Positions 29,201 through 64,000 of a stretch of 64,000 bases of DNA are shown here, in pieces. Under the pieces are notes generated by a model that saw nothing but the letters and a program-made list of their open reading frames with translations, was not told the origin of the DNA and searched no databases. Location of the stretch: NCBI GenBank assembly GCA_977020255.1, contig CDROCS010003074.1, positions 248,001-312,000 on the forward strand. The letters are read 5' to 3'. The translations under genes were made by a program, and so were the position numbers. Source of the DNA: Obrimoposthia wandeli. Its lineage: Eukaryota. Numbering within the stretch: the stretch's first letter is position 1; every line of letters starts with the position of its first letter.

Positions 29201-32200
29201 AGATTGCATTTCTTTGAGTTAGAAAGTATGTAAGTATATCTACATTATGATTTTTTACAAAGTTTGTAAAAGCCGTTTATAAACTGCGTATTTCTACTGA
29301 TAAATAGTTTGGTTCTTTTCCTTGAGCATTTAATACCTTTTATTGTGGGTCTGTATTTTTGCATTTCTTGAACTTTGCAACCATGGATTGTTGGCTCATA
29401 ATTCCAGTTACACCATTGACAAGATTAATAGGGTCAAATACTTCATTTGCCTCTATTTGGTAGATGATACCTTGAGAAAAGAGCAGTATTGGACAGTTTT
29501 GGAGAACGAGTGAAAATTGGCCTTTTCATGCATGATTCATCCGTCTGCTATACAGCTGATATCATATCTAACTATCTGGAAGACAAGAGTGTAAGGTTGA
29601 TTGACTAGCCTAGGAAAGATTCAGATTCTGGAAATCTTAGGAAGGCAGAAAACAATCGATGGAAACATAAAAATATAATAACAAAACAGTAGCTCATATC
29701 TAGAATCATTTAAAATCGAAATCGGGGCGCTAGTCTCCACTAAACTCTTAACAAACTTATCGAATCAAGATTTTGTTTAAAGTAAGCGCCAAGGAGAGCA
29801 CAAAAATATAATAACAAAACATTATTCAGTCAATTTAATGGAATTACAAGTATATGTTAGCGGAAAAGGGCATAATTATCATTAAGCATATTTTCTAAGC
29901 AGTTAGCATAATTTGTGCTTATTTTGAAAATAAATCAGGCATAAACCCCTAAGTGATTTTTTAAAATAAAATATAGAAGCCATTTTATTATAAATTTTAT
30001 ATAATTATGTATAAATAAATTCCATATGATTACATCACAATTTATTGCTACAAGTAATGAGAAATGATAGTGACTGGTACACAATAATATATTCTTTAGG
30101 CTAGGGGTTCCTCGAGCCGAAATTTGATTTGAAAAAAAAATTACAAAAATTGGTGTTAACGTTACCAGATCATAGGCCCACTATAAATACTTCATTAGTT
30201 AAACTTTAAATTTTTATTCATTTTTCAATGTAAATAATTTTATTTTTCACTTTATGTTTTTAAGTATTTTTAAATATAGGGATTCCAATAATTTTTAAAT
30301 ATTCCCAAAGGATTTCGCGGCCAAAAATGTTTTGGAACCCCTGCTTTAGGCAATTACAGCTGTTGGATTTGCATTATACCACAGCACTACAATTGCACCG
30401 ACTTAAGCCTTGACCTCCAGTGACGTTGCTCTTTGCCACGATTTCTCTGAGGGTTCTTTGACATCTTCAAGATTGAGTAGTCTTCCTTTACATACGGAAT
30501 ATTGACCTCTTTTGACAAAGTGCCGCTTAATTGGTCATATTTTGTTGATTCTTTCACTGATTTCTCTTTTTTCTTGACGACTGCTAAAATATTTTGACCT
30601 TGTTTCCTTAACTTTTTCTCTTTGGATATAAATTATTTTTTACTTCAATGTCTGTCTCGGCATCTACGTCTCTTTTTGTGTCTATGTCTTCTCCAGCATT
30701 ATCTTCATCACCGTCTGCTCCAGCATTTATATCTACTCATCACCGTCTGCTCCAGCATTTATATATATTCATTTGCTGACAATGTCTGATTGATACACCT
30801 TTTTCTTCAGTTTCCATTGTGTCTCGAATATGTTGTGGAAAGGTAGCAAAAGCGCTGGGAGCAATTTTTGCTTGTTGACTAAAAAGAGTTACACATGAAC
30901 TGGTTTTTGTTCCACTTTTAAGCCCAGTATTTGTCTGAAATTGTACGAATTAGCAACTGATTGACAAACGTTTTGAGTTGTTTTTTCTTTCCATGCATTC
31001 AGCATATCTTTAATATCAGTGTTGGATCTTTCAACGTTACTACTGGATGGAAGGTGTAAGACGACCATGAGCTATGTGCAATCCTCACCACATTTGCTTC
31101 AATTCGCCTACCACACAGCAACAAACTCTGCCAATGTTGCTCTGCCAAATGTCTATAGCTCCAAAAATGCTGAAGAGGAATACAACTTGAACTGTGACTT
31201 CAGCAACTCTTTTAGACTTTAGAGACCGTAGTTGTCCCAATTTCATGAAATGATCTTAGTAAACAAGTAAAAGGTTTAATTTATTAGATTGGCCTGACCA
31301 AGGCTATTAAATGTGTTAGTTCGAATCGGTTTACATACCACGGCTTCTACCATGTGCTTCTTTTTCTAGAATATTTTGTAGAATGACAGAAGTGGTCCAA
31401 ACGATTTTTGCGATACATTTGCTAAATAAAGCTCCGTTACTCGATGTAGCATGTGATTGATTCCTCCGTATCCAGTCTCGGAATGTGTAGTTCTATGTAA
31501 ATGAAGATGGCTTGATTCTTCCTGCTGATTATTCTTAACAAACTTCCTACTCTTGAAACGTATTTCTGCTTAATAAGCTCATAGTCACATGTTTTCTTTT
31601 TTCTTTTCTCCTATCAGTTGCTTCAGATACTCAAGGTCTTCGTAATACTTTTTTCTTGGCTTCCATTTTGATTTTTTTAAACATAAGGTTAGCAAATTCC
31701 TCTTCGGTATTCGTCATTATGTTGTGTTTTTAATTTATACAAAAAATTTAAACTTCTTTAATCAAAGTTTTGACAAATCTTTAAAATTAAAATTGTTGGG
31801 GTTTCTATACGAAACTTGGTACAGATCCTCTTAATGTGCGGAGGGCCCCAACGTGAGTTCGAATAGAAGCAGGTCTTAAAGTTGGTCGTGGCCTACTTAG
31901 TTTTATGGTTGCCTAATCTCTTGTACTATCTGAAGGTATTTGATTTGGTGTCTCTTATTCTGAAGGGTGCAAAATAACTTGTTCTAATGTAGGAAATTGT
32001 TTATTGGTAACACACTAAACTAAAACACAACAATACGTTTACGTACGTATTTTCTAAAAAGTATAGTAAAATTCCTAAGACTTCTGTAAGTCTCTACAAC
32101 AAGTGGGGATGAACCACGTATCGATTTTATTTTAGGTTCAATCAATTTCGTAGAGTCTCTACTCAATTTTGGGGTTACGTTCAAGGTTATAATTTTTGTT

Positions 32201-35200
32201 TACTTCCAAAATCTGTTTACTAAAAATCACTAATTCAAATTCACTTTTTGTTTACTTCAAAATCTGTTTACCAAAAATCACTAATTCAAATTCACTTTTT
32301 GTTTACTTCAAAATCTGTTTACTAAAAATCACTAATTCAAATTCACTTTTTGTTTACTTCAAAATCCGTTTATTAAAATCACTAATTCAATTCACTTTTT
32401 GTTTACTTCAAAATCTGTTTATTAAAATCACTAATTCAATTCACTTTTTGTTTACTTCAAAAATCCGTTTATTAAAATCACTAATTCAAATTCACTTTTT
32501 GTTTACTTCAAAATCTGTTTACTAAAAATCACTAATTCAAATTCACTTTTTGTTTACTTCAAAATCTGTTTACTAAAAATCACTAATTCAAATTCACTTT
32601 TTGTTTACTTCAAAATCCGTTTATTAAAATCACTAATTCAATTCACTTTTTGTTTACTTCAAAATCTGTTTACTAAAAATCACTAATTCAAATTCACTTT
32701 TTGTTTACTTCAAAATCCGTTTATTAAAATCACTAATTCAAATTCACTTTTTGTTTACTTCAAAATCTGTTTATTAAAATCACTAATTCAAATTCACTTT
32801 TTGTTTACTTCAAAATCTGTTTACTAAAAATCACTAATTCAAATTCACTTTTTGTTTACTTCAAAATCCGTTTATTAAAATCACTAATTCAATTCACTTT
32901 TTGTTTACTTCAAAAATCCGTTTATTAAAATCACTAATTAAAATCACTTTTTGTTTACTTCAAAATCCGTTTATTAAAATCACTAATTTAATTCACTTTT
33001 TGTTTACTTCAAAATCCTGTTTATTAAAATCACTAATTCAAATTCACTTTTTGTTTACTTCAAAATCCGTTTATTAAAATCACTAATTCAATTCACTTTT
33101 TGTTTACTTCAAAAATCCGTTTATTAAAATCACTAATTAAAATCACTTTTTGTTTACTTCAAAATCTGTTTATTAAAATCACTAATTCAATTCACTTTTT
33201 GTTTACTTCAAAATCTGTTTACTAAAAATCACTAATTCAAATTCACTTTTCTACGACTTTTCGGCTCACCTTCTATTCAATTCCAATTAGAGATTTCCGC
33301 GAGGCGAACTGTCTGCGAACTGTCTGAGTAATTCCCTCAAATATTAATTGCTCTGGCTCGATTCAATTTGGTCGACTCTGAATTCTCCGAGTTTTTGTTC
33401 TCTGGCGAGCTGTCTGAGTAATTTCCTCCTGGCTCGATTCAATTTGGTCGACTCTGAATTCTCCGAGTTATTGTTCTATTAATAAAGGTTAATTCCTTTC
33501 CAATTTATGTATTTTACCTCTGGCGAGCTGTCTGAGTAATTTCCTCAAATATTAATTGCTCTGGCTCGATTCAATTTGGTCGACTCTGAATTCTCCGAGT
33601 TATTGTTCTCTGGCGAGCTGTCTGAGTAATTTCCTCCTGGCTCGATTCAATTTTTTGTGTGTAATTTAGTAAGTAGATCGACTTATATCTACTCCTGGTT
33701 GCCAATCACTTTGCAATCAATTTCTGCAGCACCTGTCTCTTGACTATCGGAGGGACTCTTCACCTGGCTCTTAAAGTCGGTGCAATTAATGCAATGAATA
33801 AAAATATGCTTACTGTCAATTACTTTTCCCTTTCTTCGATTATTCAGACTTTGCTATTTTCTTTGCTTAGTTTTCTTAATTAACTTTTTTCGCTTTGCCT
33901 TTTGCTTTTTTGCACTTTTGGTTAATTAACTCTAAACTTATATACACCTCACACCATACACGACCTTCGTGGTCCTCCTAATTTTTACCCTAAATTCCAC
34001 TAATTTTTAATTCTAAAACTAAAATTAATATTTTAATTTAATTTTCAACCTTGCTTTCAAGGATTTTTATTTTAGTATTTAATCGACTAAAATATTTAAA
34101 TTTCTTAATTCTCAAACCTAACATACCTCGGGGGTTCCAAAAAAGTTACGTCCCCGGAACGTATCGATTTTACTTAAACAAGCCTTTGGCTGTTGATTTT
34201 AGGTTCATCCCTACAAAATCAATCATTCAACTTCAACAAACATGCCCAAAACAAAATTTCTCAAAATCCCGGTTTTTAGTGGGAAACACAATATATGATT
34301 TGGAGCAAGTCTCAAACCATACATTATTATCTATACACAAAACTACACGCATAACTATGATTAGGAAGGAAAGAAGGGAGGAAAGGATCAATTGTCATAT
34401 GTCAGGTCAATTGTAATTGTCGGCTGGTTCCGACTGGCCAGGTAGCGCAGGACCTGCTCCAGGGGTAGGTCGGGAAAGGACGGACTGTCCCCGTTGTACA
34501 GGTGTAGTTGTTGGCTCCGGGTTAGGTGTGGACTCTCGATGAACAGGTCGAAATGCTGCCCGTTCATGGCGTGATTTTCTATCCAGTGACGTCTGGTGAA
34601 CCACGAGTGACAGTCTCGACTAGACCGCCATCTCTCGCGGATGCCCAGTTGTGTGTCACGCCGGCGTGCGAGACACACGTAGCATTGGCAATGTATGCCA
34701 CCAATGCAGCTGGCAGGCGATCGGGTGCCCTTGTGCCTTCCACGGCTCTGGAGCGTCCATTTGGCAAAGGGTGTCCGGCACAGTGGACATGTGATATGGC
34801 CGGGGGGTCGAGCCTTGGCCCACAAATAGAGGCACTCCTCGTGGAATTTGTGACGGCAGCCGACAGGGGATGCTGATACCGCCCAAATCTTCTCCATGCA
34901 TACAGAACACTTCATCTGCATAAGAAAATAACTCCTTTCAATTTGGGGTTCACCGTTCTCATCGTTAATTTAAATTTTATTTCAAAATGAATCCTTAGTT
35001 ATCTAATCCTACCGAGTTTTGTTTCGATTTTAGGCATGTTTACGCATTCACACTAAGCATAAAAAATTGTCTTTTTTAGAAATTCAGTATAATAATTACA
35101 ATTTCAGTTAAACATCATACATAAAAATGGTAATGGTCAATTTACAGTTCACAAGATTATATAATTATGATTACAATTATGGTAGCTAATTTATCGCGGT

Positions 35201-54760: not shown

Positions 54761-55317
54761 AGTAGGTAGAAGGATGGAGTCTAGATCACTTGACCCCCCC
54801 CCTAAAGGGTGTCACACCATAAGGATGTCTTGCCACACCATAAGAGTATATGTTGCCTCACCTCTGGTCTAGTCTCCACCCTTCTTTTTGTGGTCTAGTC
54901 TCCACCCTTCTTTAGGCTAACCACTATGATCGTCCATAATTCAAAGAGTCAAGTGGTCTAGTCTCCACCCTTCTTTTTGGCTAATCACTATGATTGTCCA
55001 TAATTCAAAGGGTCAAGGTCAGTTTTGACTTGAAACTTTGAAGGTATAATTAAGATCATGTGAAAGTTCACACTTAAAAGTTAAGGAATGTATGACGTAA
55101 TCATACACACACTATTCTATGTGAAAATTTAGGCTAAAGTTCACTCTTATCAGTTAAGGAATGTGGTTTTTAACACACACACACTATTCTATGTGAAAAT
55201 TTAGACTAAAGTTCACTCTTATCAGTTAAGGAATGTATTACGTAATCACACACATACTATTCTATGTGAAAATTTAGATCAAAGTTTTTCCCAGGCTTAC
55301 ACATCTAAAGAATTATG
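54761..55317. repeat. Left TIR (~557 bp) with 3 subterminal aagaagggtggagact motifs (reverse complement) and 3 ~72-bp repeats
   Basis: Reverse complement of segments of 63121-64000. Confidence 0.95.
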
Positions 55318-55386
55318 TTAAATTTGTATTAAATCAAAAAAAAAAAATAAGAAAGAAGTCAGAGAATAATACAAAATTAAACACAT

Positions 55387-56394
55387 TTAATATGTAATTT
55401 CATAATGTCCATAAGCGCGGCTTCTATTTTTCTCGATCCAATAGCGTTTGTCATCTGATGAGCTGAGAGCAGTCTTTTGTATTATGATTGTGTATAGTTG
55501 ATGATTTATTGTTCCAAACTTCTTTTGTGGTATAGTATATGCATTACCGTTTTCATACACGTCTAAATATGTTTGATGTACAACCGTTGAACCCTTAAGA
55601 TTTACTCCTTTTGCTTTATTATTTTCAAAGTCATCTTCAAACTTAAGTGAATAACATTTACAAAGTAAGAAAATCCATTCTTTATACATTCTTCCTTCCG
55701 ATTCATCTTTAAATAAACCTATTTTACTATTAAATTTATTAGAATATAATGGAACATTCACATTATAATTTGACGTATCTAATAATCCATCTGTAATCAT
55801 TTTTGGTAACAACTGTTTTCTTAAATTAACGTTTTTACATTCCAAAAAGAATGAGTCGGTATCACCGGCAACTATATTAATTGAACAATTGAATAAATTA
55901 CGATATATTTGCAAATCATGATACTGAAGAGTATACATTCGTAATTTGCTAAGGTCTAGTACAGCTTGGCCTATATAATTTGGTCGATCGAGACAAATAA
56001 AGTCTTTTCTTAATAAAACAGCTATTAAATTATCATGAATTTCTAACGATGTTTTAGTATGTATATTGTCATTTATTTTACGTTTTCGTGACGGAGTAGG
56101 AGCTGAAATTACTATGTTTGATGGTTCGTTAATTATATCAGTTCTTTTGCTTAAAGCCGGTACTTTAAATAATTTTTTCTTACTATCATTTTCATATTCT
56201 TTTAAATGACTAACATGTCGACTATAAAATAAGTTGTAATCAACATTTTCAGTGCTTAAACATTGTGGACATATGAAATAATTTATCCTTTTGTATGAAT
56301 AACCAAAATATTTTTTCATTATATCATGACATACTTGAGGATTAAAATGTGTATCCGAATAACAAAAATTTGAATAAGTTTTACATATACTCAT
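55387..56394 (-). pseudogene. Internally deleted protein-primed family B DNA polymerase (C-terminal part only)
   Basis: LDRPNYIGQAVLDLSK, GDTDS, IGLFKDE, KAKGV, DDKRY and YGHY are present; no exonuclease, motif A or motif B. Confidence 0.9.
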
Positions 56395-56454
56395 CTGATG
56401 ATATGATTGATTTGATTGGACTTGAGATATTGGTTGATTTGTATACTGAATAAA

Positions 56455-56480
56455 AAAAATATATATATATATATAAATAC
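56455..56480. promoter_or_regulatory. (TA)n/TATAAA tract between the divergent polB and TBP-like genes (candidate bidirectional promoter)
   Basis: atatatatatatataaata within the 110-bp divergent intergenic region. Confidence 0.4.
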
Positions 56481-56504
56481 AATAATTTAATTATTTTACT
56501 TACA

Positions 56505-57059
56505 ATGTTAACAAATATTAATTATAAAGGAATTTGCTTAGATGATGTATCCAAATTAAAATTTCGAACACGACCAGAACAATACGTTTATAAAGCCAAA
56601 GATTATACAATACTTATTTTTAGAAATAAGAAATGCAGGATTATGGGATGTAAGGTACCTATTAAAAATATTTCTTACCCTTTAAGAATAAATATACTTG
56701 GTATTCAATCAATTACGGTATGTGAAAATTTAGATCAAAGTATCAATCTATTTAAATTATGGAATGTATTACGTAATGCATGTTCATTTGACCCTGAGGT
56801 TTTCCCAGGCTTAAGATTAAATATTTTCAATCCATTGTGTGTAAATATTTTCACATCTGGAAAGGTCGTAATTTTAGGTCTTAGAAATTTAGATTTTCAA
56901 AATCAAGTTAACGATATCATGACATACATTAAAAAAAATTATATAAATACGAAACAATTTCTAATTAAATCATTCAATTTTAAATGTCTTATAAAGCCGT
57001 TCAAAAGTATTACGAGTATGATATGTTCTTCTTGGCATCTGCATGGATTCATCCAATGA
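56505..57059 (+). CDS. TATA-binding-protein (TBP)-like protein
   Basis: FDPEVFPGL..IFNPLCVNIFTSGKVVILG matches TBP repeat 2; TILIFRNKKCRIMG matches repeat 1. The natural stop may be near 56946 if the A8 run has one extra A. Confidence 0.8.
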   Translation: MLTNINYKGICLDDVSKLKFRTRPEQYVYKAKDYTILIFRNKKCRIMGCKVPIKNISYPLRINILGIQSITVCENLDQSINLFKLWNVLRNACSFDPEVFPGLRLNIFNPLCVNIFTSGKVVILGLRNLDFQNQVNDIMTYIKKNYINTKQFLIKSFNFKCLIKPFKSITSMICSSWHLHGFIQ

Positions 57060-57130
57060 CTATGCCAGTAACATTATCGAAAACTTCGTACAATTACCGA
57101 GTCTCTGATTTTGACGACCGAATATTTTGA
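56984..57130 (+). CDS. 48-aa small ORF (MSYKAVQKYYEYDMFF...), unknown function
   Basis: ATG in an A-rich context, below the ORF-track cutoff, fills the gap before the ATPase. Confidence 0.35.
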   Translation: MSYKAVQKYYEYDMFFLASAWIHPMTMPVTLSKTSYNYRVSDFDDRIF

Positions 57131-57218
57131 TGTTTAATAAATATTTAATAAAATGTTGTTATTGTTATAAACATGTACTTATTCTGATATATTTATTTTA
57201 TATTAATATTTATATATA

Positions 57219-57848
57219 ATGTTATTAACAAACAATTCGACTTTTCAAGTAGTAGGACCAAGTGGTAGTGGAAAAACTTTATTTGTTTGTAAATTATTAA
57301 ATTCAAAAATGTTTAAAAATAAATTTAATAAAATATATTGGCATCAAGGTGGTGACGGAGAAGCTGGTTTAACAAACCAAGAATTTAATAAAATAAAAAA
57401 CATTAAGATTATTAACGGTTTTGATGAAAATTGGACGACAAGACTCGTAAAAGGTGATGTAATTGTTATTGATGACTTATATCAAGAGGCTAACAAAGAA
57501 TCTGATTTTAATGATTTATTTACAAAAATTGCAAGACATAGAGAAGTTACTGTAATTTTTATAACTCAAAATTTATTTCATCAAGGAGGAAATCATCGTA
57601 CTCGTAATCTTAATGTACATTATTTGATTTTATTCAAAAATCCTAGAGATCAAACAGTGATAGATTTTATTGCTCGTCAAGCATTTCCTCATAACAGGAG
57701 TTATTTAATTGATGCGTTTCATGATGCTACATCTTTACCTCATGGTTATTTATTTTTAAATTTTACTCAATCATGTCCTGATGATTTAAGAATTGTTACT
57801 GATATATTTAACCGTAATGGTATTACAGTCTATAAACAAAATAAATAA
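57219..57848 (+). CDS. A32/FtsK-like genome packaging ATPase
   Basis: Walker A GPSGSGKT, Walker B VIVIDD, ARHR...ITQN motif. Confidence 0.93.
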   Translation: MLLTNNSTFQVVGPSGSGKTLFVCKLLNSKMFKNKFNKIYWHQGGDGEAGLTNQEFNKIKNIKIINGFDENWTTRLVKGDVIVIDDLYQEANKESDFNDLFTKIARHREVTVIFITQNLFHQGGNHRTRNLNVHYLILFKNPRDQTVIDFIARQAFPHNRSYLIDAFHDATSLPHGYLFLNFTQSCPDDLRIVTDIFNRNGITVYKQNK

Positions 57849-57868
57849 TAATAATGTTTTAAAATAAA

Positions 57869-58282
57869 ATGAATTTTAAAAAGAGTATTCTTAAACATAG
57901 TAAAAGGACAGATAAAGATGAAGTTAAAAAATTAATAAACACTGTATTATATGATCGTAATAATATTGAATTTTCAAAAAGTTTACCTTATTTTAAAACC
58001 TTAATTGACGTACCAAAAACGAATAAAATGAAAATGTTGAAATCATTTCCAATTTATGTAGTTGATGATTTAATAAAAATTTTAAATAAAATAATTTATG
58101 GTAAAATTAAACCTGATGATAATATTTTAAAATATAAAAATTCATTAATAAATTTAGCAAATTCACGTGGTAAAATTAATAAAAGAAACATTATTTATAA
58201 TCAAAATGGCGGATTCATATTGGCCCTACTGCCCGCTATAGCATCAGTAATAGCTAGTGTTATAACTTCAAGATGGGGATAG
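57869..58282 (+). CDS. Polinton conserved small protein with a C-terminal QNGG|FILALLPAIASVIASVI peptide (candidate virion membrane-lytic/core precursor)
   Basis: Basic protein with an adenain-type xGG site preceding a hydrophobic tail. Confidence 0.65.
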   Translation: MNFKKSILKHSKRTDKDEVKKLINTVLYDRNNIEFSKSLPYFKTLIDVPKTNKMKMLKSFPIYVVDDLIKILNKIIYGKIKPDDNILKYKNSLINLANSRGKINKRNIIYNQNGGFILALLPAIASVIASVITSRWG

Positions 58283-58504
58283 TTCTGCCGTAGTCTGGAA
58301 AAACCTAGTATGTCACTTTTAGCCTATTGTGAAAATAAACACATATGAATGGTCGACTTGCTATAGCCTTAAATCAATTATGGTATTCTTTCGTTTTATA
58401 CAAACATATAAACATTCTTTCGATTAAAATATATTTAACTTTTATAATAATGGGGATAAACAATACAAAGTTGTCTAACTTATTTATAAATTCTTCATGA
58501 TGCA

Positions 58505-59530
58505 ATGGAAAAGATTTGGAACAATCCAGAAGATCCAGACGGGTATACAGGGTTAGAAAAATTGACAAAAAGAGTCAAACAATCAAAAACAAACACACAA
58601 AAATGGTTAAGAAATGAATTATCATATAGTCTGAATAAACCTTTAAGACGTAAATTCCCTACTAGATCATATAAAACTAATGGTATTAATTCGTTATGGC
58701 AGATGGATTTAATGGAAATGATTCCTTATTCTTCAGTAAATAACGGATTCAAGTATATTTTAACTTGTATTGATGTATTTAGTCGTTTTGCAAGGGCAGT
58801 TGGTGTTAAATCAAAATCGGGTATTGATTTATTACATGCAATAGAATCTTTAATTGTTGATGATGTACCAGTAAATATCCAAACCGATGAAGGTAAAGAA
58901 TTTTTTAATTCACATGTTAAGAAATTATTTAAAACTGAAAATATCAATCATTATTCAGTATATTCTCAATATAAAGCTGCAGTAGTTGAAAGATTTAATA
59001 GAACGTTAAGAGAACGGTTAAATAAATATTTTACTAAACAAGGTAATAAGAAATGGGTGAATGTATTACCAAAAATTATTTATGCTTATACTAATTCTAA
59101 ACATAGAGGTTTAGATGGTTTAAAACCTGTAGATGTAAATAATAAAAATGAATTTGATATTTTGTTGAAACAAAATCTAAAAGAAAAGAAAGTTAAATCT
59201 AAATCTAAAATTGATGATTATGTTCGAATATCAAAAATAAGTACAAGTCCATTTATTAAAAATTTTAATCAAAATTGGAGTGATGAGGTTTTTCAAATTC
59301 ATGATATTAATTATAAACAAAATCCAATAATGTATATTTTAAAAGATATTGATAACGTCATCATCAAAGGAAAATTTTATAAACAAGAGTTACAATTAAT
59401 TGATAAACCTAAACTATATCGAATACAAGAAATTTTAGAAACTAAAGGTCGTGGTAAGAATAAACAATATTACGTAAAGTGGCACGGATACTCTGAACCT
59501 TCTTGGATATTTGCTTCTCAAATTGAATAA
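58505..59530 (+). CDS. Retroviral-like (rve) DDE integrase with C-terminal chromodomain
   Basis: WQMDL, QTDEGKEF, VVERFNRTL, YYVKWHGY; uninterrupted 341 aa. Confidence 0.96.
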   Translation: MEKIWNNPEDPDGYTGLEKLTKRVKQSKTNTQKWLRNELSYSLNKPLRRKFPTRSYKTNGINSLWQMDLMEMIPYSSVNNGFKYILTCIDVFSRFARAVGVKSKSGIDLLHAIESLIVDDVPVNIQTDEGKEFFNSHVKKLFKTENINHYSVYSQYKAAVVERFNRTLRERLNKYFTKQGNKKWVNVLPKIIYAYTNSKHRGLDGLKPVDVNNKNEFDILLKQNLKEKKVKSKSKIDDYVRISKISTSPFIKNFNQNWSDEVFQIHDINYKQNPIMYILKDIDNVIIKGKFYKQELQLIDKPKLYRIQEILETKGRGKNKQYYVKWHGYSEPSWIFASQIE

Positions 59531-60543
59531 TGTCAAAATATATTATTTTACCTAGTAATAGTTGTCCAAGTACTCAACCTAACAATACAGCCAATCAATT
59601 TACTGTAGATTGGGAAAACTCTCTAAATTTAGATGGTGAATGGGAGGTTGCCTTGACTGAATTTGTATTTAATTATACTCCTTTAACAATACAAACTAAT
59701 TCAAAAATACTTTATAAAACGGAAAAGATAGAAATGAAAACTTTCGATGTATCTTTTGCAATTTTAAATGGATTAATTTTTAATAATTTAAATACTGTTT
59801 TCAATTTCAAAATTACAAAGGATCAAAAATTAGAAATAAGTACAATTAACAGTATTCATCGAATGTTGTTAAAATTCGAAACTTTAGAAGAATCAAAAAT
59901 TATAGGTTTTAATGAAATACAAAAAATTTCTAGTCATGTTATAACAAGTGATGAAATTGTTGACATAAATAAAAATATTCATGCTAAAATGAGAATTACA
60001 ATTTATTCTTTAGCTGAATATGAATACGAAATAAAATTTAATCAAAATTATTTGATACAAGATAGTTCTTCATTATGTAATATTATAGCCAGTAAATGTA
60101 ATGAAATTTTTAAAAGCTGTAATATAGATTCAAACGGATTATTTGATATTTTAATAAAGAAAAATGTAAAATCAGTTTTATTTGACGAAAAACTTGCATC
60201 TTTATTAGGTTTAAATAATGTTTTCTTTGAGAAACGAATTAAAGGTTTTCAAAAACCAACACTTTCTAGCTCATATAATCAAATGTATATTTATACTAGT
60301 TTAACAGATTCTGTCTTAGTAGGATCTGATTATGTTCCACTGTTAAAGTCTATTTGGTTAAAATCATTAAAATATCGATATGGAGATGTAGTAAATGTTA
60401 AAATTGATAATCCAATGTACTTGAAAATGAGAGATTCAAGTATTAATAGAATCGAGGTAAATATACGTGATGATTCTGGTAATTTAATTCCATTTTCATA
60501 TGAAGCAAAAACTAGTTTAACTCTTCATTTACGTAAAGTATAA
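59530..60543 (+). CDS. Minor capsid (penton-like) protein
   Basis: ILPSNS...NTANQFTV...GEWEVALTE N-terminus and IEVNIRDDSG...TLHLR C-terminus; position next to the MCP. Confidence 0.85.
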   Translation: MSKYIILPSNSCPSTQPNNTANQFTVDWENSLNLDGEWEVALTEFVFNYTPLTIQTNSKILYKTEKIEMKTFDVSFAILNGLIFNNLNTVFNFKITKDQKLEISTINSIHRMLLKFETLEESKIIGFNEIQKISSHVITSDEIVDINKNIHAKMRITIYSLAEYEYEIKFNQNYLIQDSSSLCNIIASKCNEIFKSCNIDSNGLFDILIKKNVKSVLFDEKLASLLGLNNVFFEKRIKGFQKPTLSSSYNQMYIYTSLTDSVLVGSDYVPLLKSIWLKSLKYRYGDVVNVKIDNPMYLKMRDSSINRIEVNIRDDSGNLIPFSYEAKTSLTLHLRKV

Positions 60544-60580
60544 ACAATATAAATATATTTAAAATATAAACATATATAAA

Positions 60581-60970
60581 ATGAATACATCAATTATAAA
60601 ATTTTATAGCAAAAGTCAACAGGGCGGTGAACTTCCCTATTTCATTGGTAAACAATATGGATCTGGTTGGTATCAAACTATTTCTAGATTAGCTATTCCA
60701 TTTATTAAAAAAGCTACAAGTGCTGCCAATGTAATTGGTGAAACGGTAGGAACTGCGTTAACAAATCCAAAAAACATAATTTCATCTCTCAAAGAAAATA
60801 CAATCAAAGAAGTCAAAACTTTGATTCCAAAATTAAAAAATAATGCTGTTGAGAGTTTAAATAAAGTCGCAAATTGTGTTGAACAAAATGGAAAGGGTTT
60901 TAAACGTAAAAGAAATAATTTAAATAGTATAAACAAACGTCTTAAAGGTACTATTTTCCAAAATGACTAG
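60581..60970 (+). CDS. Basic core-protein-like precursor with adenain-type sites
   Basis: QQGG|E, QYGSG|W and QNGKG|F sites; KRKR tail. Confidence 0.6.
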   Translation: MNTSIIKFYSKSQQGGELPYFIGKQYGSGWYQTISRLAIPFIKKATSAANVIGETVGTALTNPKNIISSLKENTIKEVKTLIPKLKNNAVESLNKVANCVEQNGKGFKRKRNNLNSINKRLKGTIFQND

Positions 60971-62183
60971 TATAAAATCTGAATTGTGTATTTTCGATAG
61001 ACCACTACCTCAAGTAGTGATTGAAAATTCAAGTTTTGAAGAAATATTTCCAATCAATTCAATTACTGGAAAAAATTTAAATGACATAGAATTTAATATT
61101 CATGCATCTGAAGAAGATTATCTGGATTTGAATGATACTTTGTTAAATATTAAATTAAAAGTTGTAAATGAAGATGGTACTGATTTAATGAAAGATAGCG
61201 ATGTAACTCCAGAGAATTACATGTTTCAAACTTTGTTTAGAGATGTTATTCTAACACTTAATAATGTAAAGGTTGAAGGAGGAAATGGAACGTATACTCA
61301 TAAGGCTATATTCGATACTCTTTTGAATTTTAGTAGTGATACCAAGTATACTAACCTTGAATGTTCCGGGTATGATGATGATGCAGAAAATCGTAAACAA
61401 TGGATTAGTGAATCTAAAATATTTTCATTGTGTAATTCAATTAGATTAGATTTCTTTGATCAACCAAAATATTTGATTCCAGGGATTAATGTTCATTTGA
61501 GATTTATGAGAAATCAGCATAATCTTTCGCTCTATTCAGAAACTTCAAAACCAATTATTCAAATTCTAGATGCTAGATTGTATGTTAGAAGAGTAAAAGT
61601 TGATTCTTCAGTAATGATTGGACATCAGTTAGGTTTGCAAAGTCAGAATGCAGTTTACCCAATTAGAAAAACTCAGTTAGTAACATATTCAATTCCTCAG
61701 GGTTCTTTAGAACTTAATAAAGATCAAATATTCGGAGACTATCGTTTACCCAAGTTCATTTTGATTGCTTTCAAAGATACACCTCAGGGTGGTAAGGAAT
61801 ACAAAGTTAAATCTTCTACGTTCAATACATTTAATGTTTCAACAATATCATTAGCTAGAAATACAGATTATCGAGAAACTTATAATCTAGATAATAACAA
61901 TTTTTCATTAGCATATATGCAGTCAATTATTCGAAATATGAATATTTTAGATAAAAACGTGAATAATGGTATCAGATTTTCTGATTTTAAATCAGGAAGT
62001 TCGATTTTCACTTTTCTATTAGCACCAGATTTTGATATAAACACTACTCAAGTGCCTAAAACTGGTAATTTAAGACTTGAAATTAGATTTAATTCTCCTT
62101 TGACCCTTCTAACAAGTGTTTTGATTTACGGAATATTTGATTCCGAAATTCAGATTACGAAAAATAAAACTGTGATTGAATGA
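60963..62183 (+). CDS. Major capsid protein (double jelly-roll)
   Basis: KSELCIF, IEFNI...YLDL..TLL, AVYPI, GNLRLEIRF motifs; 406 aa, uninterrupted. Confidence 0.9.
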   Translation: MTSIKSELCIFDRPLPQVVIENSSFEEIFPINSITGKNLNDIEFNIHASEEDYLDLNDTLLNIKLKVVNEDGTDLMKDSDVTPENYMFQTLFRDVILTLNNVKVEGGNGTYTHKAIFDTLLNFSSDTKYTNLECSGYDDDAENRKQWISESKIFSLCNSIRLDFFDQPKYLIPGINVHLRFMRNQHNLSLYSETSKPIIQILDARLYVRRVKVDSSVMIGHQLGLQSQNAVYPIRKTQLVTYSIPQGSLELNKDQIFGDYRLPKFILIAFKDTPQGGKEYKVKSSTFNTFNVSTISLARNTDYRETYNLDNNNFSLAYMQSIIRNMNILDKNVNNGIRFSDFKSGSSIFTFLLAPDFDINTTQVPKTGNLRLEIRFNSPLTLLTSVLIYGIFDSEIQITKNKTVIE

Positions 62184-62217
62184 AGTAAGCTTATTGTATA
62201 TTATATTCTTTATTTAA

Positions 62218-62556
62218 ATTAGTACTTTAGAAATTCATAAATCCGGAAAAATATTATTGAATAACAAATTTAATGGAGTATATTCATTGGATAAAATTCC
62301 ATCATTAAAACCCGGAGGCTACATTATCAATACTCATACTTCAAATCTACCAGGCGAACATTGGATAGCAATATTCGTTGACAGATTCGAGATTCGAGTG
62401 TTTGACCCTTTTGGATTCTATTATCCTTCAAAGTTGGTGTCTACACTTGAAAAAGAAAACATTCCAGTCTACTATAATCGAGTTAAATGTCAGAATCCAT
62501 TAACTAAAAACTGCAGGCCTCTGAGTCTTTTATGGTTGAAACTTCAACACAAATAA
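62218..62556 (+). CDS. Adenain-like cysteine maturation protease, start codon apparently ATT
   Basis: INT...GEHW, FDPFG, Q......C; the frame is open from att-agt-act-tta-gaa (xSTLEI) at 62218 with no ATG. Confidence 0.8.
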   Translation: MSTLEIHKSGKILLNNKFNGVYSLDKIPSLKPGGYIINTHTSNLPGEHWIAIFVDRFEIRVFDPFGFYYPSKLVSTLEKENIPVYYNRVKCQNPLTKNCRPLSLLWLKLQHK

Positions 62557-62607
62557 TTTTAAGTATAAACAAATATATCATTATAGTATTTCATTTTATT
62601 TTTTCAA

Positions 62608-63059
62608 ATGGCTTTTATTGATTTAGAATGTTTTATTGATAATAATGGAGAATTTATTCCAAAGAATTATGTATAATGTATGTGAATGATATGACTTGTC
62701 CATTTCATTACGTGTTTAAAAATCAAATACCATGGAGTAGTTTATCATTTACAGTTAAAAGAAAAAATCTATATTTGATAAATCATCATCATCAGTTATC
62801 CTGGTTTGAAGGTGAAAGCTCTGATATTCATATTGATGATGTTGAAACAATATTCTATGTTATGGATTCTATTGATGGAAAGAAAATTAATTTAGTGAAA
62901 CGAATGTTTCCAAATTTGAGAATTGTGAATTATAATAAAAGTTTCAAAAATTTAAAGAAAATGCCAAAAAATATTCGATGTCCGTTTAGAAAACACGGAA
63001 AACATTGTGCTTATTTGAAATGTTTTTCTCTATGTATTGATTATGTAAATTGTATATAA
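62608..63059 (+). pseudogene. DEDD-exonuclease-like ORF with a frameshift near 62661
   Basis: MAFIDLECF...FIP / KELCIMYVND...HYVFK...W; one extra A joins the frames. Confidence 0.55.
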
Positions 63060-63120
63060 ATATATTTATTAAGGATATTTTATTTTAATATATAATTTAT
63101 GTTATTTAAATAAATTTTAC

Positions 63121-64000
63121 CATAATTCTTTAGATGTGTAAGCCTGAGAAAAACTTTGATCTAAATTTTCACATAGAATAGTGTGTGTATGATTACGTAA
63201 TACATTCCTTAACTGATAAGAGTGAACTTTAGTCTAAATTTTCACATAGAATAGTGTGTGTGTGTGTTAAAAACCACATTCCTTAACTGATAAGAGTGAA
63301 CTTTAGCCTAAATTTTCATTATGGACGATCATAGTGGTATACCAAAGAAGGGTGGAGACTAGACTACTTGACTCTTTGAATTATGGACGAACATAGTGGT
63401 ATACCAAAGAAGGGTGGAGACTAGACCACAAAAAGAAGGGTGGAGACTAGATCACAAAAAGAAGGGTGGAGACTAGACCACTTGACCCTTTGAATTATGG
63501 ACGATCATAGTGGTTAGCCAAAAAGAAGGGTGGAGACTAGACCACAAAAAGAAGGGTGGAGACTAGATCACAAAAAGAAGGGTGGAGACTAAGCCACTTG
63601 ACCCTTTCATAGTGGTATATCAAAGAAGGGTGGAGACTAGATCACAAAAAGAAGGGTGGAGACTAGATCACAAAAAGAAGGGTGGAGACTAAGCCACTTG
63701 ACCCTTTCATAGTGGTATATCAAAGAAGGGTGGAGACTAGATCACAAAAAGAAGGGTGGAGACTAAGCCACTTGACCCTTTCATAGTGGTATATCAAAGA
63801 AGGGTGGAGTCTAGATCGCTTGACCTCCTCCCCCTCCCCCCTAAAGGGTGTCACACCATAAGGGTGTCTTGCCACACCATAAGGGTATATGTTGCCTCAC
63901 CAGAGGTGAGGCAACATATACTCTTATGGTGTGGCAAGACATCCTTATGGTGTGACACCCTTTAGGGGGGGTCAAGTGATCTAGACTCCATCCTTCTACC
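63121..64000. repeat. Right TIR (>=880 bp) with 12-13 aagaagggtggagact motifs and a terminal palindrome
   Basis: cataattctttagatgtg at 63121 mirrors 55300-55317; the last 101 nt mirror 54765-54867 apart from a shorter C/G run. Confidence 0.95.

Follow-up and report, generated by a model that had tools for sequence, protein, structure and literature searches.

How does a transposable element come to carry pieces of one of its own genes in its terminal inverted repeats (TIRs), and what could keep them there? This question is raised by a Polinton/Maverick copy found in a 64,000-nt stretch of the Obrimoposthia wandeli genome (contig CDROCS010003074.1), which was analysed as a whole and is called the window here. 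Short exact copies of parts of the TBP-like gene of this element are present in its TIRs. We describe these copies, trace them through the family and through other lineages of the same genome, and weigh the explanations of their origin and possible function.

The element and the gene blocks in its TIRs

The window's element is a Polinton/Maverick, as identified by its termini, target-site duplication (TSD), integrase and ATPase (Table 1). Its TIRs start with AG and the 6-bp TSD ATTATC flanks both ends. Full-length relatives with TSDs are present too. The TBP-like protein matches Pfam PF00352 (E 7e-12) and TBP entries of the PDB (down to E 1e-20), and its structure model (pLDDT 87) has the TBP-repeat fold and the motifs. 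The capsid candidate reaches an Atlas score of 0.98 to DJR-labelled clusters with its recognition below threshold. A DJR-like family is found on 15-65% of the members of the matched Atlas clusters, and no Pfam match is obtained. The protease frame matches Peptidase_C5 (PF00770) at E 0.004, below the curated cutoff, and S273R of the PDB at E 0.057. The last gene, labelled exonuclease-like in the preliminary description, has no Pfam match. Searches of the polB-like frame against Pfam, PHROGs and PDB gave Endonuclease VII or nothing. A long polB-like frame of 1,145 aa in another copy (L065:3555-6992), a candidate protein-primed family-B polymerase with polB-type motifs, carries an Endonuclease VII domain at approximately residues 555-596. 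Since the polB-like gene of the window's copy has lost about 2.6 kb internally, this copy is non-autonomous, a deletion derivative of a parent family of about 12.8 kb. At its right end a 66-bp near-perfect hairpin (63836-63970) repeats terminal sequence once more in inverted orientation, which the left end does not do. Elsewhere in the window (32193-33250), and unrelated to the TIRs, a 50-51-bp unit is repeated about 21 times as a satellite array.

Table 1. Positions of the element, its genes, the TIR blocks and the predicted bZIP sites in the window
Feature	Position	Strand	Remarks
Polinton/Maverick copy, about 9.2 kb	54761..64000	+	right terminus at window-equivalent 64004
Left TIR	54761..55354	+	internal deletions make it shorter than the about 1.1-kb TIRs of full-length copies
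Tandem array, three 72-73-bp units	55063..55286	+	gene-colinear A-spacer-B stretch in each unit
TGACGTAA, half-CRE/C-EBP-type bZIP site	55093..55100	+	predicted
Block B, 17 nt	55230..55246	+	equals 56761-56777; contains the palindrome TTACGTAA
TTACGTAA palindrome in block B	55238-55245	+	predicted PAR/NFIL3/C-EBP bZIP site
Block A, 23 nt	55263..55285	+	equals 56719-56741
Block C, 14 nt	55286..55299	+	equals 56800-56813; FPGL codons
Block D, 7 nt	55300..55306	+	equals 56852-56858; probably native TIR sequence, not gene-derived
polB-like gene	55387..56394	-	about 2.6 kb of internal sequence lost in frame at 56040-56043
TBP-like gene	56505..57059	+	two-repeat TBP-type fold, approximately residues 1-145
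Donor segment of the TIR blocks, E-A-spacer-B-C	56702..56813	+	within the TBP-like gene, about 110 nt
Packaging ATPase (A32-like)	57219..57848	+	Pfam Pox_A32 PF04665, E 8e-6, above cutoff
rve integrase with C-terminal chromodomain	58505..59530	+	PF00665, E 4e-10, above cutoff
Putative double-jelly-roll major capsid protein	60963..62183	+	Atlas feature matches 0.98; a lead only
Adenain-like protease reading frame	62218..62556	+	no in-frame ATG start in the window's copy
Last gene	62609..63059	+	frameshift near its start in the window's copy
Right TIR	63084..64000	-	blocks at 63132-63208, TTACGTAA at 63193

The preliminary description reported four matches between the innermost TIR repeat and the TBP-like gene, and all four are exact. 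They are beyond chance. When the left TIR was shuffled 500 times with its dinucleotides preserved and matched to the element interior on both strands, no match was longer than 16 nt, compared with 23 nt observed, and matches of at least 14 nt had a mean of 0.10 against 5 observed. All blocks were likewise said to be present at the right end. There the blocks of 23, 17 and 7 nt are exact (63153, 63192 and 63132, respectively), but the 14-nt block has one substitution. The idea that the 17-mer was moved ahead of the other blocks is not correct: positions 55190-55246 are colinear with 56719-56777 of the gene (85% over 59 nt by BLAST). Because the units are colinear as A-spacer-B, block B follows block A of the previous unit, and the apparent shift is a matter of tandem phase. 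Block D matches the gene exactly, but its origin from the gene is improbable. Its 7-mer is part of an 11-mer with three copies in a single full-length left TIR, and the two extra copies are located in outer 99-bp repeats that are deleted in the window's copy. Since the 11-mer recurs in these outer repeats, block D has probably not come from the gene.

A fifth block, E, is found in fuller TIRs upstream of the others. It matches 56702-56716 and extends to at least 27 nt in a form with 144 exact matches. In the TIR of the copy L197, E and A are contiguous (37 nt with one mismatch) and are followed by the spacer and B, and the TIR of L283 has E-A-C without B. Judged by their sequence, the blocks together trace one gene segment, 56702-56813. 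They encode Q68, S69, T71 and F100, which are invariant in 17 aligned TBP-like proteins, and the gene is thus the donor. The matches to the gene are confined to the inner approximately 250 nt, and no gene-derived signal is found in the outer 868 nt of the full TIR. A gene origin of the outer TIR was considered and rejected, as its 10-11-nt matches to the 3' side of the gene were unremarkable. The last gene, too, gives a 12-nt match, which is inside the shuffle range. A further type of end was observed in L139, L141 and L197, with approximately 450-500 nt of AT-rich sequence between the outer TIR and the gene-derived blocks.

Distribution within the family and limits among other lineages

The TIR-unit pattern has 8,209 matches genome-wide and the 26-nt gene pattern has 1,768 exact matches. 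Sixty gene copies were taken in contig order (listed matches 31-91 of the gene pattern, minus one already in the set), and the TIR inner end is located upstream of the gene in 47 of them. Among these 47 elements block B less its first base is exact in 42, block A in 15 and block C in 21. The gene-TIR region is also covered by contigs of four runs from one sample. Two trivial explanations had been named beforehand. A one-off rearrangement of the window's copy is excluded by the family-wide occurrence of the feature, and a misassembly by the agreement of the 47 copies together with the run contigs. The TIR units are variable in number (1-4) and in sequence, and the left and right ends of the elements are not always homogenised. 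The gene varies as well: copies taken in contig order keep the 17-mer B exact in 6 of 90 cases and the 23-mer A in 33 of 90, and the gene haplotype of the window is found in none of 85 fully typed copies. The window's gene is unusually close to its TIR. The host genome carries a very heavy Polinton load, with at least five TBP-bearing families, three of them with thousands of first-look candidates, and its Polintons are often nested inside one another.

Five other groups were sampled, namely lineage X and the families W, F2, Y and Y2. Lineage X has the module from the ATPase to the last gene as in the window's family, mostly at 85-99% aa, together with a different polB and a different TBP (TBP-X), which is 77% nt identical to the family's TBP. 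The polB and TBP pair appears to have been exchanged as one unit. These elements (L102-L111; C202, C2136, C223, C1632 and C5672 of G000) are recombinant and have the same outer TIR as the window's family. The right end of lineage X has the blocks, and its left end breaks off immediately ahead of them. At this point a short stretch was seen by eye to resemble the gene at the entry point, and it is possibly the microhomology for a template switch. Since blocks E, A and C are closer to the gene of the window's family than to TBP-X, the capture likely postdates the split from lineage X.

In the families W, F2, Y and Y2 none of 16 elements, with ends located in part, has its own TBP sequence in the terminal repeat, and own-TBP matches of at least 14 nt are scattered only. 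These four families encode a TBP-like protein without the feature, which excludes the TIR blocks as a general Polinton trait. The gene capture by the TIR can thus be taken as lineage-specific, though family-wide. Only six TBP loci, all distant, were found in the viral contigs searched. In metagenomes the 13 closest of 80 loci gave no informative self-match; these loci of 1-5.8 kb show no termini and cannot test the question. Family W (L138:1497-9901 with L177; L178-L181) differs in gene order, with its capsid module on the polB strand and TBP near the right end, and in one of its copies (C4902) the inverted repeat extends over approximately 2 kb and takes in the polB 3' end. A diverged copy of the TBP-like gene, with 84% nt identity to the window's gene, was observed in L317, and some letters of its spacer region are common to the TIR rather than to the current gene.

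The homology between TIR and gene is a substrate for recombination which deletes or duplicates the polB unit, as observed in two natural copies. In L257 (1 of 90) the 5' part of the gene is joined to the TIR inner end across block A and the polB unit is duplicated. In L141 a TIR-type unit is joined to the TBP-X gene across block B; this copy has no polB and its TSDs are intact. A genome-wide search with exact junction probes for TIR-to-gene joins found none at A, no true one at C and one at B. Eight of the nine matches of the block-B probe are TIR variants and were discarded, and so was the single match of the block-C probe, which is the diverged gene copy in L317. These recombination events are real but rare.

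Origin, predicted bZIP sites and rival readings

Self-capture from the element's own TBP-like gene is well supported as the origin of the TIR blocks, and we consider it very probable. The preliminary description had offered template switching of gene pieces into the TIR with subsequent amplification and homogenisation. Copying followed by amplification fits, given the gene as donor and the near-contiguous copy that survives in L197; the parts that do not fit are the TIRs, which do not track the gene, and the ends, which are not always homogenised. We propose that about 110 nt of the gene would have been captured into the TIR inner end, presumably once, by microhomology-guided template switching during replication or repair. 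The captured unit would then have been tandem-duplicated and may have spread to both ends through TIR pairing. Selection for bZIP sites could have followed, with the units serving as a putative enhancer. For the full reading, in which the TIR holds an abbreviated gene copy, likely captured once and duplicated, and the unit is likely a host bZIP (CRE/PAR-type) site array, we see about an even chance.

A predicted bZIP site array is the most likely function of the units, a view that we hold with evenly divided confidence, and the captured piece is likely kept for its predicted host bZIP binding site. The palindrome TTACGTAA is bound by NFIL3 with a Kd of 0.042 uM and by C/EBPbeta with a Kd of 0.018 uM, and an A-to-G change in its flank is tolerated, according to the available part of PMC10941009. 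This tolerated change is the same as the synonymous flank variant common in the TBP-like gene. The 8-mer TGACGTAA is present in an EMSA probe of PMC8674125. Among 108 units in the 47 left TIRs, 53 have TTACGTAA, 29 have TGACGTAA and 20 have lost the site outright, and 46 of the 47 left TIRs keep at least one predicted site. Two consensus bZIP sites were observed against 0.01-0.10 expected at three of three block-bearing ends. Common variants affect 0 of 8 columns in the core of the innermost unit, 5 of 23 in block A and 3 of 10 in block C. In the gene itself, 76 of 90 copies have an intact core, which is common to TBP-X. In the unrelated family W (polB fragment at approximately 54% aa), 12 of the 16 ends found carry T[TG]ACGT[AC]A sites close to the terminus; they are located within 420 nt of it (20 loci) and are above shuffle expectation in all four cases tested. 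AP-1-type sites are present in families Y and Y2, with a significant excess in one of four ends, and no bZIP site is present in one F2 end or in the lineage X left end. Since unrelated families have similar sites at their ends, a putative reuse as enhancer is the best functional reading. Two more TTACGTAA palindromes are located inside the element, at window positions 59470 (integrase 3' end) and 60529 (end of the 337-aa ORF).

Several observations stand against the bZIP reading. The heterozygosity of the core is no lower than that of the non-gene spacer (0.056 vs 0.045), and statistics do not distinguish the conservation of the core from drift, the family being young. The 20 units that have lost the site, the F2 end without one and the AP-1 excess in no more than one of four Y and Y2 ends weigh in the same direction. 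The left end of lineage X is without the whole segment, yet lineage X has spread. In addition, the enhancer model leaves the retention of A and C and the gene polymorphism cluster unexplained. Nor are the 18 nt that block B has in common with TBP-X exceptional, as a 26-nt run is present elsewhere in the gene. The blocks might instead be a neutral passenger, that is, a one-time self-capture followed by slippage duplication in a repeat-prone TIR and spread by the success of the family, with the palindrome being incidental. The free variation of the units, the decay of A and C to the low exact counts given above, the absence of the feature from four other families and from the lineage X left end, and the unstable repeats which make up the whole TIR would all be expected under such a history. 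It accounts less well for the commonest core variant (29 of 108 units), which still forms a bZIP site, and for the bZIP sites at the ends of unrelated families, and we consider it possible but on the unlikely side. Shared cis-elements or protein-binding sites had also been suggested. This suggestion fits the 17-mer alone, as a predicted host bZIP site, and nothing indicates that the TBP-like protein binds there. Autoregulation, in which the TBP-like or another element protein would bind the shared sequence in gene and TIRs, could explain why block B is common to both TBP alleles and the TIR. It is nevertheless highly improbable, with blocks that are not TATA-like, four other families that encode the protein without any shared block, and a gene and a TIR that diverge independently.

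An antisense silencing circuit, proposed in the preliminary description as a result of read-through from the two outermost genes, finds no support. In 44 of 47 left ends the polB stop is followed by a polyA signal ahead of the blocks (in the ATTAAA form in the window's copy). All 10 right ends checked have such a signal as well, approximately 25 nt ahead of the blocks, so that antisense RNA would arise only through leaky termination. The RNA of the repeats has no unusual fold (z -0.54). The suggested check on whether the TIR follows the substitutions of its cognate gene gave no such co-variation, either in the 47 elements typed for both or in the three full-length ones. The TIRs hold the same states whatever the gene haplotype, and they retain an older state while the gene alleles differ. 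A guide kept complementary to its own target was therefore not found in this comparison of TIRs with gene alleles.

The gene alleles do differ in a conspicuous cluster, which spans 56718-56778. In 90 copies the 77-nt E-A-B stretch has seven common variants and the remaining 352 nt have two (Fisher p 1.3e-4), and divergence from TBP-X is not higher in the matched stretch (13/77 vs 79/352; polymorphism against divergence, p 1.3e-4); as the sites are linked in a few lineages, these p values are only indicative. The run contigs show the same cluster at six of the seven sites. The match to the TIR is reduced by five of the seven variants and raised by one, and one is ambiguous. One variant changes K84, which is conserved in 15 of 16 homologs. 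The longest TIR-gene match averages 16.7 nt with the own gene vs 18.4 nt with the window's gene. Such a cluster would fit an escape of the gene from silencing or recombination directed by the TIR. Self-targeting of this kind would mean that TIR-derived RNA, proposed to come from read-through or from host small RNAs of the thousands of copies, or else costly recombination hits the matching part of the gene, and that match-breaking alleles are favoured. The cluster, its match-cutting variants, the K84 change, the shorter match with the own gene and the recombinants L257 and L141 would agree with it. On the other hand, five of the seven changes are non-synonymous and fall in a loop and a helix which are variable among homologs (column identity 0.57 vs 0.65), so a protein-level cause is possible, and the polB N-terminus and orf137 have variant windows just as dense. 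Matches of 16 nt persist in most elements, block C has no common gene variant, and a perfect B match is kept by seven of eight TBP-X copies in a biased sample. With the polyA signals ahead of the blocks and the rarity of true junctions also against it, self-targeting with escape seems improbable to us. The stronger picture, in which thousands of TIR units act as a self-directed guide against the element's own TBP-like gene in an intra-element arms race of more than 1,700 copies, is doubtful to a like degree.

Comparison with known systems

For the role of Polinton TIR interiors and the activation of these elements, the window's family offers a traceable case. In the bZIP reading, regulatory DNA was likely born here from the element's own coding sequence. 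Host bZIP factors would be a candidate activation input, with predicted sites that recur in unrelated families of the same genome. Lineage X provides a natural control with the segment missing at one end, and the polymorphism cluster makes the self-targeting hypothesis directly testable with small-RNA data.

ATF sites are present in the adenovirus ITR and E4 promoter. The regulatory DNA of dsDNA viruses is more generally alike in having bZIP motifs near the ends and regulatory elements overlapping coding sequence, as described in the available part of 10.1101/2025.07.20.665756. In this comparison with dsDNA-virus bZIP sites, limited to the available parts of the sources, we found no report of an end-repeat site array arising from a virus's own coding sequence.

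With animal Polintons/Mavericks (adintoviruses; PMC8097293, PMC8502044), as far as these accounts are available, the window's family has in common the TIRs, the AG-starting termini and the 6-bp TSD, and likewise the integrase and ATPase, together with candidates for the polB-like gene, the protease and the capsid. Its TIR is within the range of 46-1,447 bp reported there, and the module swapping between Polinton lineages described in the same accounts is also seen here in lineage X. The copy number is different: the 1,768 exact matches of the gene pattern exceed the maxima of less than 300 given there for vertebrate Polintons. The available parts of both accounts describe no gene-derived TIR sequence, unlike the situation in the window's family. 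In searches of open papers (subscription journals and Repbase reports being outside the scope) we found no description of gene-derived Polinton TIRs.

Pack-TIRs and Pack-MULEs arise by gap-filling or FoSTeS-type template switching, according to the available text of PMC8277862. Pack-TIRs are alike, in the same text, in the capture of nearby sequence, in the favouring of repetitive TIRs and in the subsequent amplification, and their microhomology at the breakpoints may have a counterpart in the short stretch seen at the left end of lineage X. They differ in that host sequence is placed between the TIRs, whereas here the element's own gene has entered the TIR itself, at both ends. Membership in the Pack-TIRs was accordingly rejected, the donor being the element's own gene and the acceptor the TIR. 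The Polinton TIR-derived repeats at eri-6/7 of C. elegans, as far as covered by the available part of 10.1101/2024.01.15.575659, are similar in that TIR sequence is reused and drives rearrangements. There, however, the TIR acts on a host gene, while in the window's family gene sequence has entered the TIR.
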